A DNA stretch of 64,000 nt. Source: Podarcis vaucheri. Its lineage: Eukaryota. Shown one piece after another: positions 1-62,404 of this stretch. Below the pieces are notes generated by a model. That model had not been told where the DNA came from. It worked only from the letters and a program-made list of their open reading frames with translations, and made no database searches. Both the position numbers and the translations under genes were made by a program. Numbering within the stretch: the stretch's first letter is position 1; each line of letters begins with the position of its first letter. The stretch is taken from the NCBI GenBank assembly GCA_965113315.1, contig OZ220379.1. The stretch is one strand, 5' to 3'.

Positions 1-245
1 AAGCAGTCAAGTGGCCACACATGGGTTAAGGCAATCTTGTAGGTAAACTGGTCGCAAGTTGTTAAGGGCTTTATATATGAATAGTAATGCCCTGAACTTG
101 GCCCAGTAGCAAATTGGCAACCAGAGCAGGTCTCTGAGCACAGGTGCTATATACTGACAAAGCCTCACTCCTATCAGCAATTGCTCTGCAGCATTCTGCA
201 CTAACTGCAGCTTCTGCATCAAGCACAAGGGAATCCCCACATAGA
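1..245 (-). mobile_element. L2/CR1-clade LINE fragment (ORF2 C-terminal region)
   Basis: Minus ORF 7..240 reads KLQLVQNAA...LRDLLWLPI...[11 protein letters not shown], the typical post-RT segment of L2-type LINEs. Confidence 0.7.
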
Positions 246-20645: not shown

Positions 20646-21129
20646 AACATTTGGGGTCTATGTAAATATTCAAGTCAATTAAATTATTACTGTTTAGCTG
20701 TTAACTCGATTTTACTCAGCAAACAAATTACGGATATAGTATGTCCTAAAGTAGATAAGAATCAAGCATCAACATTGTGGTCTTCCTTTTGTTTGTTAAC
20801 AAAACCTTCAGCTTGCTTTCTTTCTTTTGTAAAAGCTGATGCTCAGCTGAGAGTAGTGCAAGTGAAGATAGTAATTTCTTGTCATTTCTCGACCGATAAA
20901 AGCATTCTAGAAGCAGCTTAAAAATATGAATTTCATCCAGAATTCTCAGGGTTGCCAGGAGCAACAATATTCTTCAGTAAGTCCATCTTTGTTGTTGATT
21001 TTGTGCAAAAAGTGGCATACGAATAAAACGAACGAAGGAATTATTAGCTGGTCCATCATACATGATTCTCCTTAACGGTGGGACCAATGTTTAAAACGGC
21101 ATATTTTTAAAGGAAAAAATGGAAATAGG

Positions 21130-21880
21130 ACTTGAGCGCGTGGTTGCCGCTGGGGGCCGGCAGCGAGCAGTCTCCCTCCCTCTGCCTCATGTGATTCGGC
21201 CCTTGAGCCAAAGGAAGGCGGAGCCCGGAGGCCTTGGACCGTCCCGAGCGAGGAGGTGCTTTTCTGTCGAGGTGCAGCCCCCGTTTCCCCATCTCATGCT
21301 GGCCTTCCTCGCGCGAGCGCCCCGTCCTCTCCTCTCCGGCTCAGCCGGCAGCCCAGGGAGGGCTATGGCGGCGGCAGCGCGGCAAGGTTTGCGCAGCAGC
21401 AGCAGCAGCAGCAGCAGCAAGAAACTGGTGGAGTGTTTCTACGACGTGCTGTCTCCGTATTCCTGGCTGGGATTCGAGGTAACAGCGGTGGAAGAAGGGG
21501 GCCTGGAGGGGGGACCGGGACAGTCTTCCCCCTCTCCCCCCAGATCGCAGCACCCTGCTGGGACAGCCGCCCTTGCACCCCTCGCCAAGAACTCCGGCGC
21601 AACTTTGTTTTGCTCAGATGGCCACTCTCCGTGGGTCCCGTCGGTTTTCCTTCCGTACTTAGGAGGGTCACGAAAAGTAGAACTGCAAAGTCGGAAGTGT
21701 CCTGGTTGACCTGCGATCGACAAGTGGATCGCCGGTGTGCTTCCGGTCGATCGCGGTAGTTAAATAAGAGATCGCCCGGTCGCCCCTGAGCGCTCGTGAC
21801 GCGCCCCGGGCTGTTAACGCATTTAGTCCCCGCGTCGGCTGCTGCGCGTGGGAAGCAGGGAGGGCTGCGAAACGCAGAGT
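21130..21880 (+). promoter_or_regulatory. GSTK1 CpG island
   Basis: GC- and CpG-dense region spanning exon 1. Confidence 0.75.
21365..21478 (+). CDS. GSTK1: GSTK1 exon 1 (upstream in-frame ATG at 21296 possible)
   Basis: [38 protein letters not shown]|GT. Confidence 0.9.
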
Positions 21881-51800: not shown

Positions 51801-53371
51801 CAAAGGCAGAAATACAATTCACAGAATGAATTGTGGTAATTGGTGTGTGCAGTGGTGTGTGAAAGCGGGTAGGAGGCCTAGAATTTCCTGGTGGTGGTAC
51901 TGCCACTTCCCAGGACGAGACCAGGCAGGGCCACTGCTATCTGCTGCTATTAAGGCGATGAAAGAGTCTTTGAAGGAAAAATGGGCCAAGAAAGACAGCT
52001 TCCAAACCATTAGGTTTTTACAGCAGACGTACTCACCCACGGAAATCCTGCAACTGGATCCTGTCTCCAAGGATATCCAAAAACTCTAAGAAGCCCAGAC
52101 TCTCTTCAGTATTACTGAAGACTTCTTCCTCTGTGGTCTATATAAAAGGAAACAGAAAACTGAAGGCCACCATTTCCCATTCGAGTTCTTGACCTATCCT
52201 GGAGTCCAATAACCAGTACAGTAAAGGTCTCTTTTGCACATGTGAGTGCATATGCACAAACACACACACACACACACACAAACAAACAAACAAACAAACA
52301 AACAAACACACTCTCTCCCCTTTCCTTTCACCTTCCTAAAAAAGCCACAATCCCTGTTTGCCAGAGCGGAAGGTGTGGAGACTGTGTGTATCTTTGACAC
52401 TAGCAGAAGATAAGCTGAATAGGTTCTGAACAGATATTAGTCAGTGGTGGCCCATAGGCCATAGCCTATGGCAACCTAGGGCCCAAGGCCGCATGCGGCC
52501 CAATCACCTTCTCAATCTGGCCTGTGGATGGTCAGTGTGTTTTTACATGAGTAGACTGGGTTATTTGTGGGACATAGGAATTCTTCATTTTTCTTTTCAA
52601 AATATAGTCCGGCCCAACACATGGTCTGAGAGAAGTGGAAAAGGTTGCTGACCCCTGCCCTAAAGGGGTCCTTTCAGCAGGGACTTAAAGAGACATTTCT
52701 CAGGTGATGTCTACAGCTTGTTTTCTCCTCCCTAGTTGCTTGCATGTCACTTCCAAGTGCTCCCCTTCCCAGTTGCTGAAGCCAGAGGGAGGATTGGGGG
52801 GGGGGGAGGACAAAGGAGGGGAGATGATTAGCCAAAAAGGAGTGATGGTGTACCGGAAAGGAAGAATGGAGGATCACTGGACATGATGGAGGGGAACAAG
52901 AGGACATAAGGAAGCTCTTGCCCAGACTCCCCAAATAGCCTATGATAGAAAAGGGCATTGAGTGTGCATAAGAAAAGAGGTTTACCTGCCCAGGTTTTTG
53001 GTAGATGACTCCGAACTTGAAGTTATTGCTGATGACATGTTCATCAAATGCAACAATGAGTTGGGAAGCCTAGGAGGCGGAGAAACAGCCAGAGTTAGAA
53101 GTAATAACAGGCAGAGAAAGAGAGAGTTTGCATATGGGGCTACAGCGAGCCTACCTTGGGATAGAGCACTGGAAAGAAGCGGTCAACATTCACATCCTCA
53201 CACAGCAGCTGCAGGAGGACAAGCAAAAGATGTTAACACACTTCCAGTGCAGGGACTTGAGGCACCATTTTCACTGACACCAATTGGATGAGCCTCAGTT
53301 ATTTAACATGGCGTGAAAATTCACATTTGCAAATTTAACCTTTCAACAGTCCTGTATTTGCAAGGGATTTG

Positions 53372-56400: not shown

Positions 56401-59262
56401 ATTTTAAAATATTTTAATGACGCAATTTCATTCCAAAAAAAAAATCAAAGCACTTTACAGCAAGTGTAATACAATAAAAACCACACAGCATTAAAACAGA
56501 TCACCAGCTGACTATTATGGTAAACGTTTTCCTAGACTGTCTGCATAGCCCTGCATGCAAAAAATAAAATAAAATAAATGTTTTCAGCAAACGTTTGGAA
56601 GTTAGGGCTTTTCCACACCTCCCCTTGTCCTGTTGCTTCCCCCTGGGGAAAACCGCTCTTTAGCACTCAGTTGGAACAAATGGCAATTCGGGTTTCCCCC
56701 AGGTTCCCGTTTGTTCCAATCTATTGCTAAATAGTGCGGTTTCACTTGGAAAGTGGGCAACTTTCAAATGTGAGAACCGCTCAGACCATGCTTTCTAGGC
56801 ACAGCACAAGTGGAAGTATGGACAAGGCCATAGTTCAGAAGGTGCCTGCTGTATGTCCCCAGCAGTGGGCCACAAAGACTGAAGTTTCATCTTCATGTTG
56901 ACGTCAAATAAGCCTCACCAATTCAAGGGACAACCAGAAACACTCCTTCAGATGGGCTCAGTGATCTAGCTTAGGATATAAGGGTTCAGGTGACCCCCTT
57001 AAGGCACCCAGGACCCAAGTTGTTCAGGGCTTTGTAAATGGATACAAGGACCCTGAACCCAGCTCAGTAGCAGATGAGCAGTCAGGAGCTACAGAACTTC
57101 TCTTACCTTTCCCAGGAAGTGCTTGCGGTACAACTTGGCTGTTGGGTCACACTCCAGCTTCACTTTGCCACTGCAAGGGGATGGCAGGTCATGCAATTCT
57201 GGGCCTGAGATGGGAAGGTTGTGAGAGGTCCCTTCGATCCAATAGCCCCCAAACTGGGGTAAGATAATGAGAGGGTAGGGCCACCCTCTCCGTAACACCT
57301 GTCCAGAAAGAGAGATGTTGTAGGATCAGACACGAGCAGAGGATCAAAACAGAACAAATCTTGATCTGTTGATTTCTCTCTTTTTTATATAAAAAAAATA
57401 GTTTTTATTAAAGATTTTCTTTGTTTACAAAAGAACATGCATTGTCTCTTTTTCAGGTTGTAAACTCTTTTCTACAGATCAGTTACAAATCTTTTCTACA
57501 GATCAGTTGCATTTTCGGCACAAAAATATTAAAATGAATCCAAACTATAATTTCACATGCACACACACATCTGAAACAAAAGTAAACCTTCAAAATCAAA
57601 TTCAGATTCTATTCTGGTCAGAGTCTACCACAGAAAATGAGCTTTCCCCTGTCATCAAAAACATAGTACGAGCACCCAGAGAAGCAAATCAAATATTGAT
57701 CTTAATAGTAGGACAGGTTCAGGCGGGAAATGACAGGAACTGGTGAAGCCGTTTAAAAAATGGTAGAATGTGGTCTGGCCATCCAGTCACAGCTGCCACC
57801 TGCACTATACATTTAAAGCAGTAACATACGACTTTAAACAGTTATATGGCTTCCCCTGTAGAATCCTGAGAACAGCAGTTCCATTAAGGATGTTGCGAAT
57901 TGTTAGGAGACCCCTAGTGTAGTGTAGTGGTTAAGAGCGGTAGACTCGTAATCTGGTGAACCGGGTTCGTGTCTCTGCTCCTCCACACGCAGCTGCTGGG
58001 TGACCTTGGGCCAGTCACACTTCTCTGAAGTCTCTCAGCCCCACTCACCTCACAGAGTGTTTGTTGTGGGGGAGGAAGGGAAAGGAGATTGTTAGCAGCT
58101 TTGAGACTCTTTAGGGTAGTGATAAAGCAGGATATCAAAGCCAAACTCTTCTTCTTCTATTCCTCACAGAGAGCTACAATTCCTAGAGTGGCTTAACAAC
58201 CAATCCCTCTTCCCAGGGAACTCTAGGAATCAAAAGGAATAGGGGGTCTCCTAACAACTCTTAGTACAAAGACAAATGAAAGCTTGGAGTCATTAAATGC
58301 TGTCAGTTCAAACTAACACCTGATCCACAATTTGAGGGCGTACGTGAGCCAACCTCATTTTTTAAAAAAAACGAATAAATTTGAACTCAAATCTTGGTTG
58401 GTTTTGCTGCGACTCACCTCATGGATGCTTGGGTAAGGGATGTACTCCTCTTCTCTCTGAAAACCCAAAGAGGTCATATGGGGGTGAGGAGCTGGGGATT
58501 ATGCAAACTGCAAAGTAATGCATAGGCTTCCAACATCCTATCACATGCATCCCTGCCTCCTGAGTCCAAATACAGTGGTGCCCCGCAAGACGAATGCCTC
58601 ACAAGACGAAAAACCAGCTAGACGAAAGGGTTTTCCGTTTTTCGATGCGCTTCGCAAGACGAATTTCCCTATGGGCTTGCTTCGCAAAACGAAAAAGTCT
58701 TGCGAGTCTTGCGATTTTTTTCCCTTCCCCCCTTTTTCTAAGCCGCTAAGCCGCTAATAGCCTTTTAGCCACTAAGCCACTAAGCCTTTAATAGTCGCTA
58801 AACCACTAATAGCGCTAATCCGCTAAGCCGCTAATAGGGTTGCTTCGCAAAACGAAAAAACCGCTAGACGAAGAGACTCGCGGAACGAATTAATTTCGTC
58901 TTGCGAGGCACCACTGTAAGGATAATAATTGGGCCTCTCAGTTCTTCCACCCAAACTATATGCATTTGTGGATAATACAGTGTGTGTGTATATATATATA
59001 TATATATGCAGGTTTTGGTGTCTTCGGGTGTCTTCCCGTGTAAGAGTCGGGGTGTCTGTGCGACGTTTCGACGAGGTCTCACTCGTCATCTTCAGGCTGG
59101 TGCTTTCAGCTTCTTGTTACTGGAACAAGAAGCCGAAAGCACCAGCCTGAAGATGACGAGTGAGACCTCGTCGAAACGTCGCACAGACACCCCGACTCTT
59201 ACACGGGAAGACACCCGAAGACACCAAAACCTGCATTCCTGTACCCGTGAAAATCTACGAAA

Positions 59263-59314
<52 letters not shown>

Positions 59315-59540
59315 TGGTACCTCGCAAGACGAATGCCTCGCAAGACAAAAAACTCGCTAGACGAAAGGTTTTTCCGTTTGCGATTTGCCTCGCAAGACGA
59401 ATTTCCCTATGGGCTTGCTTCGCAAGACGAAAACGTCTTGCGACTTTGTTAAACCGTTAAAACCGTGCTTCGCAAGAGGAAAAATTCGCTAGATGGCAAA
59501 ACTTGCGGAAAGAATTAATTTCGTCTTGCGGGGCACCACT

Positions 59541-59580
<40 letters not shown>

Positions 59581-62404
59581 ATGACAGTATATATAAAAAT
59601 ATATATAAATACAGTATATGCAGGTTTTGGTGTCCAATATCCTCAGAAACCCAAAAGACAAAATCCAGCTGGAAAACCAAGGGGTCTATGAAATACCCTG
59701 CAAAGTCTGCCCAGCCACGTACATTGGACAAACAAACAGACGAATAAATGCACGTATCGCAGAACACAAGAATGCCGTCAAAAAAGAAGAAAAAACTTCC
59801 TCTCTTTTCCAACACATGAAAGAAACAGGACACGAAATTAATTTTGCAGATTCCAAATTGCTCTTTAACATGGAACATCACCACAAGAGAATAATCATGG
59901 AAGCCATCGAGATAGAGAAACACCCTCACAACATGAACAAGCGTGACGACACGTCCCGCCTGCCAGACATCTGGAAATTAGCCCTCCCCACAAAAACCGA
60001 CACCAGAACCAGAGGCACACAGAACGCCGTCACCAATCAACCACACCAGACCCAAACCCAGACCCTCTCCACAGACATATTACAGACTCCATCCAGTAGC
60101 CAAACTATAGTGGCACCTCCGGATGCTGCACCCCCCTGCAATCCCTACACAGATCTGGCTGGCACAAGGCACAAAACCACAGCTCGCCCCTATACACGAA
60201 GCCAAGCCAGAGCACAACTAAATGCAGCACAGCCATCTTCTCAGAAAAACTCTTCACAAGCTCAAGAGGTCAAGACACGAAAGCTTTAGCAACTAATCTA
60301 CACTTAATGACCCACCCAGTGGTATTCAGAATATCACTCATGAAATCACCCAAGATATCCCTCTAGTAATTAAGGAACAAAAGAAGAAAAGGCACACTAA
60401 TCTAGGAACTTCCTCTCTGCCCAGAACGTTGGAGGCTATACACCACACCCCTCAACAGTATTTATAGGAACTCAAACACCAGACTCTGCTCTGTTCCAGT
60501 AACAAGAAGCCGAAAGCACCAGCCTGAAGATGACGAGTGAGACCTCGTCGAAACGTCGCACAGACACCCCGACTCTTACACGGGAAGACACCCGAAGACA
60601 CCAAAACCTGCATATAATGACATTATATATATAATGACTATTCCCCCAGCTCCCTGTCTTCCTCATGAAAACCCTCTGGCATTAGCTCTTCCCTATCCTT
60701 GCAATTCCCATCTCTTTCGCATATATTTGTTACATTAGTTTGGCTCACCTCCTAGTCCCTTGGCTCCACAGTTGAAACCTACATAAGTGGAAGGCTGCCA
60801 TTCACTGATACAGGGACACACTCAAAGCTGCAATTCAGCTGGGAGCAAAACACAGTCCTGCTGTCTTGCTCCTGATTCCCAGCTTGATAATATATGCTTA
60901 GCCCTATCTGGGCCTCATTGATCCCTCTCTGGATGTTGGGAAACAGCTTTTTATACCATGCATTATAAAGACAATGTGAGGATCGGCTCTTACAGTTGTC
61001 ATTTTTAGTACTAAAATTCCATTGGAGGGTTCAGTCGTATAATTGCTGAACTGACCTTGAGTGGAGCTGGAAGTGAACACCTTTGCTCATCCAAACGACT
61101 TTTCTAGACAGAGAAAAAGGCAGAGTGAAACTGCACAGCCCAGTATGTCTCTCCTTTTCCCTTTCCCCTCCACCTGATGCCAATATCCCCCCTGCCAACC
61201 CGCCCACCCTTGCAACACAAGTTCAGATTTCTGCAGCTGAGAGCAAGATTCTCAACAAAGTTTTAAGCCCTACTTCTGGATATGGCCAAAGTTAAATTGC
61301 AAAAAGAGAACAGCCAGCATACCTGTTGTTGCTACTTTTTCATAATAATTAACTGTAGAATATCATCAACACAAACTGAACAAACAACTCCCTTGTTTGC
61401 AAAGCAAAAGGATTTGTGCCTTTGGCATACACACCTAGGACACACAAGCCCATTTCACCATTTACATAACAATAGTCGCTCAGTGTGTAGAAGGAGTAAT
61501 CAGAAATACAGGTGAATCTGGGAAATAATCACATCATATAATCTAAAATACTGTAAGCAGTGGGAGAATGGAGCCCCTACACCTCATTCTGTCTTATTCT
61601 GGCTGAGATCCATTGCTTTAGGAAAGGGAAAGAGCATGATGTTTTGCAACCAAAACTGCTCCCAAATGTTCCCCTCTTATCCAGGTGTCAGAATCAATCC
61701 ATGTTCTGCACAGTCCAAACATCAAGTTAAAGCCTTGCTGGATATAGAGGCATTCATACACACATCTAACTGTTTCTGTTCAAGACACCTAGACAGGTAT
61801 CAGCGTAGTTTTCCAGTCCTACCTGGTTACTCCATTTCCTTTCCTCCTCTTAGACTTGAGAGTTTAAGATTAAAAGGTAAGGTGTGTGCACCCAATTATC
61901 CAGGTAGCAAACACATTTGCCGTACACTTTTCTGATAAAAACTCTTTTAATTACATAAGTGTACCCAGACATGTGGGATGCGGGTGGCGCTGTGGGTTAA
62001 ACCACAGAGCCTAGGACTTGCCGATCAGAAGGTCGGCGGTTCGAATCCCCACGACGGGGTGAGCTCCCATTGCTCAGTCCCTGCTCCTGCCAACTTAGCA
62101 TTTCGAAAGCACGTCAAAGTGCAAGTAGATACCTTCCGGCGGGAAGGTAAACGGCGTTTCCATGCGCTGCTCTGGTTCACCAGAAGCGGCTTAGTCATGC
62201 TGGCCACATGACCCGGAAGCTGTACGCCGGCTCCCTTGGCCGATAAAGCGAGATGAACGCCACAACCCCAGAGTTGGTCACGACTGGACCTAATGGTCAG
62301 GGGGCCCCTTTACCTTTTACCCAGACATGTAAAACTGCTATGTGTTTTAATCTGTAATTTTAGCTTCTAACACACCATCGTTTTAACCTTGATCTTTTTA
62401 ACTA

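Follow-up and report, generated by a model that had tools for sequence, protein, structure and literature searches.

Head-to-head stubs of a young Poseidon-clade Penelope-like element, probably inert, in an intron of a Rap1GAP-like gene of Podarcis vaucheri

The window analysed here is a 64,000 nt stretch of Podarcis vaucheri DNA (GCA_965113315.1, contig OZ220379.1), whose positions serve as coordinates, and our subject is a cluster within it of Penelope-like element (PLE) sequence carrying three hammerhead ribozyme motifs. To judge from its sequence, the cluster consists of two recent head-to-head PLE insertions and a miniature inverted-repeat transposable element (MITE), all in an intron of a Rap1GAP-like gene (Table 1). 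The host gene runs on the minus strand, where two short exons with GT..AG ends flank the cluster and a downstream exon (52986-53069) matches Rap1GAP (PDB 1srq, E 1e-10), which places the cluster inside a 2.6-kb intron and bears out the setting proposed in an earlier reading of the letters alone (the sequence-only reading). Element positions are counted from the A of the ATG of its open reading frame (ORF) as +1.

The two motif copies of insertion 1 lie in the two arms of one 113-bp inverted repeat, which meet in a 4-nt microhomology; genome-wide, this junction is present 119 times. Insertion 2 has a 980 bp right arm, 99.3–99.6% identical to intact units, and a GIY-YIG frame that is open over 59609-60289 (Pfam GIY-YIG E 2e-4, just under the cut-off). 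The sequence-only reading had described the motif as lying just downstream of an uninterrupted GIY-YIG frame; the frame is open, but it is the C-terminal fifth of a 906-amino-acid (aa) ORF with its 5' end cut off, and only the motif copy at 60522 follows it, those at 59060 and 59145 being inverted-repeat arms. We take the MITE to be Tc1/mariner-like; both of its copies have CAGTGG-type ends, and the one in the cluster lies between the TA runs of the two insertions.

Table 1 Features of the cluster in window coordinates (pLTR, pseudo long terminal repeat; UTR, untranslated region).
Feature	Position	Strand	Evidence
Intron of the Rap1GAP-like host gene, holding the whole cluster	58457..61055	-	flanking exons 61056-61103 and 58418-58456, GT..AG, read from sequence
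(TA)n run, left side of insertion 1	58990..59005	.	sequence
Insertion 1 left arm, pLTR piece about -37 to +84, sense to host pre-mRNA	59006..59127	-	blastn against natural full unit, 98%
Minimal hammerhead copy 1 (putative cut site between 59062 and 59061), buried in a hairpin by prediction	59060..59097	-	pattern and folding
Insertion 1 right arm, about -28 to +112, including 28-nt tail 59237-59264	59124..59264	+	blastn
Minimal hammerhead copy 2, ATG at 59153 (A9/inserted U/G10.1), predicted cut after C59180	59145..59182	+
(TA)n run, right side of insertion 1	59265..59309	.	sequence
Older MITE with terminal inverted repeats	59312..59541	.	85–90% like second copy 58573-58916
Insertion 2 left arm, inverted 16-nt piece of the +84 end	59619..59634	-	repeat comparison
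Insertion 2 right arm, 5'-truncated, -895 to +84 (GIY-YIG ORF part, 3' UTR, pLTR)	59634..60613	+
C-terminal ORF fragment with GIY-YIG endonuclease, without its own start codon, antisense to host	59635..60289	+
TATA-box-like word, 29 nt ahead of position 60488, where copy 5' ends accumulate (putative transcription start)	60459..60466	+
Minimal hammerhead copy 3, with ATG at 60530 and a cut predicted after C60557	60522..60559	+	pattern

The family behind these insertions is large and uniform. Across the 1.6-Gb genome, the 28-mer immediately past the predicted cut is matched exactly 12,185 times and a relaxed hammerhead motif 11,520 times, the latter nearly always by this one family. Tandem units are spaced 2,961 bp apart with the ATG within the repeat, i.e. 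the pLTRs include the ORF start, and in three natural copies the 906-aa ORF is intact, with its ATG inside the hammerhead motif, an RVT_1 domain (E 7e-15) and, at the C-terminus, a GIY-YIG domain (E 1e-3, under the cut-off). According to the available part of one study, Neptune and Nematis have an extra zinc-finger motif between reverse transcriptase (RT) and endonuclease (EN) (PMC8557442); the RT-to-EN linker here, its translation read by eye, is without a cysteine cluster, and the ORF aligns straight through with an Anolis protein (45% identity), the N-terminus of which fits the PAc RNA string in the accessible supplement of PMC11167929. Among named proteins, one of a wall lizard comes closest (96%). 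On sequence, the family is an EN+ PLE, of the Penelope/Poseidon clade by similarity, and very young, its ~12,000 terminal copies being near-identical (~0.25% difference between copies). The earlier proposal of a young PLE family with a minimal type I hammerhead in its pLTR thus holds, by copy number, the 906-aa ORF and the motif of its relatives. A viper protein (P0002) shares 82% identity over 481 aa with the ORF, far closer than the Anolis relative, a likeness from which horizontal transfer among squamates is possible. Scanning metagenomes with a single protein gave no match, and an alignment-based scan found 80 loci of related PLEs.

The motif itself is built as first described: CUGAAGA, an extra U, a perfect 6-bp stem II (GACGAG/CUCGUC), GAAAC-GUC with an ACGU palindrome, and a 2-bp stem I, in three identical 38-nt copies, the 34-nt core pattern of which matched three times in the window and never in 100 shuffles. 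The CUGANGA, GAAA and UH core elements stand in type I order, and the G10.1-C11.1 pair and all core bases are intact. The covariance-model check that the sequence-only reading had named came out negative, as none of the 27 Rfam hits at E<=10, all of them below gathering score, was to a hammerhead family; the miRNA-like ones among them are the long hairpin formed by the arms of insertion 1. The extra U had been regarded as a flaw in the core, yet it is the U of the start codon, since the ORF's ATG spans A9, the inserted U and G10.1. Nor is it a defect, because an extra base is the norm among PLE relatives: the motif occurs in 28 of the 80 distant PLE loci (30 matches against 5 in a reversed control, with unrelated stem II sequences), and all 30 matches carry one (14 U, 15 A, 1 C).

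Covariation was assessed in an alignment of 19 rows, the window motif plus 18 of these 30 matches (left out were 7 on the minus strand, 2 duplicates, 1 with a long loop and 2 without the palindrome), in which stem II pairs by construction, having been selected for, and stem I was not selected for. In 91% of cells stem I is paired, and each of its 3 pairs has changed on both sides, so the expected stem covariation is there for stem I in the relatives, but the third pair is absent from the family studied here, where A stands unpaired opposite A or C at that position (paired in 17 of 19 rows); its stem I is 2 bp rather than at least 3, and the relatives mostly have 3. The inner pair of the palindrome changes on both sides in 4 of 19 rows, the two palindrome-less matches having been removed beforehand. 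By its sequence, then, the motif is a minimal type I PLE hammerhead with a short stem I. A UCUGU just past the putative transcription start (window 60492-60504) could, by eye, pair with an ACAGA after the cut site, a pairing that would extend stem I at long range. A pattern for other hammerhead families in this genome gave 11 matches against 20 in the control.

To describe how copies are made, arms were surveyed at 43 loci lying within the initial 13.7 Mb of contig C1. Nearly all arms (109 of 112) end at +83/84 or +112..118, mostly adjoining a TA run (median 13 units, 107 ends), and 33 of 38 abutting head-to-head pairs combine a +84 arm with a +112 arm (p 4e-6). In 17 of these 33 mixed pairs, as also in window insertion 1, each arm has a part that its partner lacks, and the remaining 16 pairs are nested or equal; non-nested arms favour two primings over the fold-back of a single cDNA for at least half of the pairs. 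As for arm 5' ends, 28 of 111 fall at -46..-33 and 3 at +24..+33. Genome-wide, copy 5' ends preceded by a purine number 701 at -41, which lies 29 nt behind the TATA-like word, 32 at the cut site (+29) and 39 at a control position (+26), with real junctions in 30 of 32 and 37 of 39 of the last two. Because 5' ends pile up at -41 without an excess at the cut site, the templates of reverse transcription are mostly uncut RNA. Full-length copies starting at +29 are too few to make an excess (2 of 30, vs. 0 of 37 at the control). A cap origin for an extra G at -41, present in 28 of the first 100 rows, was rejected; this G is equally common at controls and mostly stems from the partner arm.

The TA runs flanking the insertions may have been made at insertion, as suggested by the one clear case that an empty-site comparison yielded among 125 clusters. 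This insertion (L015:1494-1758) sits in an older repeat, the eight paralogues of which are without a long TA run at the site, yet it has TA flanks of 40 and 19 nt. At another locus (L066:251-864), the host flanks on either side of the insertion are inverted copies of each other. The element has no recorded RNA holder. In a related species, RNA reads over the ORF are mostly sense (L092:4160-5360), and in them A>G and T>C exceed other changes, editing and species differences being inseparable in such reads.

Some genomic copies carry clustered changes of the kind made by ADAR. At L162:7123-9400 (contig C1 ~1,584,100–1,586,400) the sense part has 61 A>G among 68 changes and the antisense arms have T>C in 70 of 73 and 79 of 84, with few edits after a 5' neighbouring G (4/28) as against A (35/40); a G-poor 5' neighbour is an ADAR signature, according to the available part of PMC2873906. 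Both arms of L162 share 69 of 70/73 edits, and at L363 all 16 edits are common to both arms and absent from 48–111 ordinary copies. Clustered A>G or T>C with G-poor 5' neighbours mark L354, L355, L358, L360, L363, L365 and L366 as well as L162, and two patterns, each requiring one edited position, matched 6 and 9 places, with at least two edits in 5 and 8 of them. Such copies likely derive from ADAR-edited templates. They run intact across the hammerhead cut site, which implies that transcripts of inverted pairs were edited, remained uncut there and were re-inserted.

In metazoan PLE minimal hammerheads (Cervera and de la Pena 2014, PMC4209133, as far as its available text goes) we find the same CUGANGA, extra base, G10.1-C11.1 pair, long stem II, GAAA and palindromic 15.2–16.2, and in D. 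virilis the same near-invariance of copies, whereas stem I is 4–5 bp in the Schistosoma families against 2 bp here. The accessible parts of two studies on EN+ PLEs with inverted pLTRs (PMC8557442, PMC3846280) describe the same head-to-head 5'-truncated copies with a tail on one side (30–40 bp there), microsatellite targets and a TATA-like box in the pLTR. One of them (PMC3846280) proposes self-priming on an antisense template; the mixed, non-nested +84/+112 arms here favour two primings on a sense template. The closest known system is PAc (Poseidon_Ac of Anolis carolinensis; Frangieh et al. 2024), in which, by the available text, the hammerhead overlaps the ATG, cuts only with protein and is dispensable for insertion, and reverse transcription starts at two internal sites (PMC11167929). 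Both elements have an ORF of RT and C-terminal GIY-YIG with a hammerhead overlapping the start codon, a cut shortly after the ATG (26 nt in PAc, 28 nt in Podarcis), two internal copy ends that give the tail, the distal one at +111–118 in PAc and +112–118 here, AT-rich targets, and uncut RNA as template, seen in vitro for PAc and as a genomic footprint here (PMC11167929, same portions). They differ in that the proteins are 45% identical and the core is read in another frame (SSKRR vs. GETS). The Podarcis element has a 2-bp stem I, a predicted ribozyme and ~12,000 near-identical terminal copies, mostly beside (TA)n and with junction microhomology to TA. By eye, the N-termini of the distant relatives P0003, P0022, P0023, P0034 and P0035 also carry the hammerhead footprint, in two frames (KRR or ETS). 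Amniotes also have intronic ultraconserved hammerheads, e.g. HH9 in RECK, which are single, canonical, conserved and active. The intronic copy resembles HH9 in that its core is sense to the intron, but it is one of ~11,500 recent transposon copies, minimal and, by prediction, locked in a hairpin. A non-LTR retrozyme consists, in the accessible text, of short non-coding tandem head-to-tail repeats, each with a hammerhead (10.64898/2026.07.22.740005); this identity was discarded, as the copies are head-to-head pieces of a coding element.

We read the cluster, with good though not full confidence, as intronic stubs of a young Poseidon-clade PLE that are likely inert, whose hammerhead, overlapping the ATG, is likely to act on no RNA but that of the element itself, cutting it weakly and aided by the element's protein or a second copy. 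Transcription would start ~41 nt before the ATG, behind the TATA box, and the endonuclease would cut TA-rich DNA, the two strand ends of which would each serve as primer for reverse transcription of uncut RNA, the one at +84 and the other at +112; both cDNAs would stop at the RNA 5' end or before it and then be joined via microhomology. If Anolis PAc is a guide, cutting at +28 would separate cap and AUG from the ORF, so that the likely role of the hammerhead would be self-limiting expression, not template making. In the host pre-mRNA the sense copy would pair with its 113-nt complement and become an ADAR substrate rather than a ribozyme. More tentatively, at something short of even odds, the whole burst may be a record of PLE insertion in vivo, in which one capped, uncut RNA is primed twice (+84, +112) by the ends of one break, edits barcode individual molecules, duplex transcripts of the pairs are edited and re-inserted in the germ line, TA runs are perhaps made at insertion, and the hammerhead is a protein-triggered off-switch that removes cap and AUG.

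The sequence-only reading had pointed to the minus-strand copy as a self-cleaving motif transcribed within the intron. That copy is indeed sense to the host, its core is complete, its predicted stem II probability is 0.99 once the antisense arm is removed, and ~11,500 motif copies could provide partners in trans. We nonetheless give very little credence to the idea that, as a monomer or dimerised in trans, it cuts the Rap1GAP-like pre-mRNA and thereby affects the host gene. Along the host strand the antisense arm precedes the sense hammerhead, so that the copy is transcribed after its perfect 113-nt complement; the pair is predicted to fold into a 113-bp hairpin (-242 kcal/mol, z -34), in which stem II probability drops to ~1e-20 and the ribozyme would not be effectively exposed. 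With only one sense copy in the intron there is no dimer partner in cis, stem I is just 2 bp, minimal hammerheads in the available part of PMC4209133 are uncut as monomers and weakly cut as dimers, and the edited genomic copies indicate that transcripts of this kind become duplexes and persist across the site. Folding predictions thus make cleavage of the host pre-mRNA by the intronic copy unlikely and inert intronic hammerheads likely, and the sequence-only reading was right on the element and the motif class and likely wrong on a live intronic ribozyme.

Several observations count against parts of our preferred account, and they bear on the ribozyme, the templates and the two primings in turn. 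The 2-bp stem I and the unfavourable energy of the active dimer (-19.1 kcal/mol, with two monomers at -23.2 and the best dimer at -29.4) mean that the family ribozyme could be dead, and within the family the core is no more conserved than its flanks (5/1628 vs. 20/8349 mutations), a comparison expected to set the core apart that cannot decide on selection because copies differ so little. These points, with the lack of excess 5' ends at the cut site, favour the main rival, namely that the motif is a degenerate, catalytically dead hammerhead retained only via its overlap with the start codon, the first codons and the promoter or protein-binding region, which would be compatible with the proposed insertion mechanism. 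We consider it rather unlikely, as the core bases, G10.1-C11.1, the perfect 6-bp stem II and the palindrome are all intact, CUGAAG precedes the AUG and is thus free of coding constraint, and reads of related species show, among the rows listed, no fixed difference from -44 to +30 (a stretch in part also coding) as against at least 20 over the upstream 255 nt; the D. virilis element, too, is reported to have a 2-bp stem I in the available part of PMC4209133. On templates, the missing +29 ends also fit cut RNA that is degraded or unfit as template, the -41 count is inflated by a local 4-nt palindrome (27 pairs among the first 100 rows), the low-depth RNA reads of a related species contain no start at -41 and no end at +28, and we infer both the transcription start and the regulatory role. 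As for priming, both shared-edit pairs (L162, L363) are nested, so they show one RNA molecule, not two primings, and fit fold-back too. The 260-bp palindrome could be a non-autonomous element copied as a unit, or the product of fold-back self-priming of one cDNA or antisense template (PMC3846280, available portion), for which the identical junction found 119 times, the recopying of pair transcripts seen at the edited loci L354, L363 and L162, and the 16 of 33 mixed pairs that are nested or equal would speak. This we find improbable: the 119 junctions, at two arms each, account for ~2% of the ~11,500 motif copies, and junctions are highly varied; window insertion 1 and 17 of the 33 pairs are non-nested and impossible from one folded cDNA; and the arm ends are the two sense-strand RT start sites mapped for PAc.

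The biology of the motif is already known, and the host gene is unlikely to be affected; what makes the family valuable is its ~12,000 nearly unmutated ends, which let two PLE questions be tested from sequence alone. One is whether the template for transposition is processed by the hammerhead, to which the footprint answers that mostly it is not, in line with the in vitro result for PAc; the other is the origin of inverted one-tailed insertions, where two primings are favoured over one fold-back. The edited retrocopies serve as rare in vivo barcodes. By title and abstract, in a search outside which most subscription journals fell, we found no paper on Penelope twin priming, on retrotransposed ADAR-edited Penelope elements or on ADAR-edited genomic retroelements; the available part of PMC2873906 treats G-to-A traces in DNA and A-to-G traces in RNA. 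Elsewhere in the window, a TMEM175-like exon lies at 943-1629 (+; Pfam E 1e-12) and a weak DSBA-like thioredoxin start at 21095-21709 (+).

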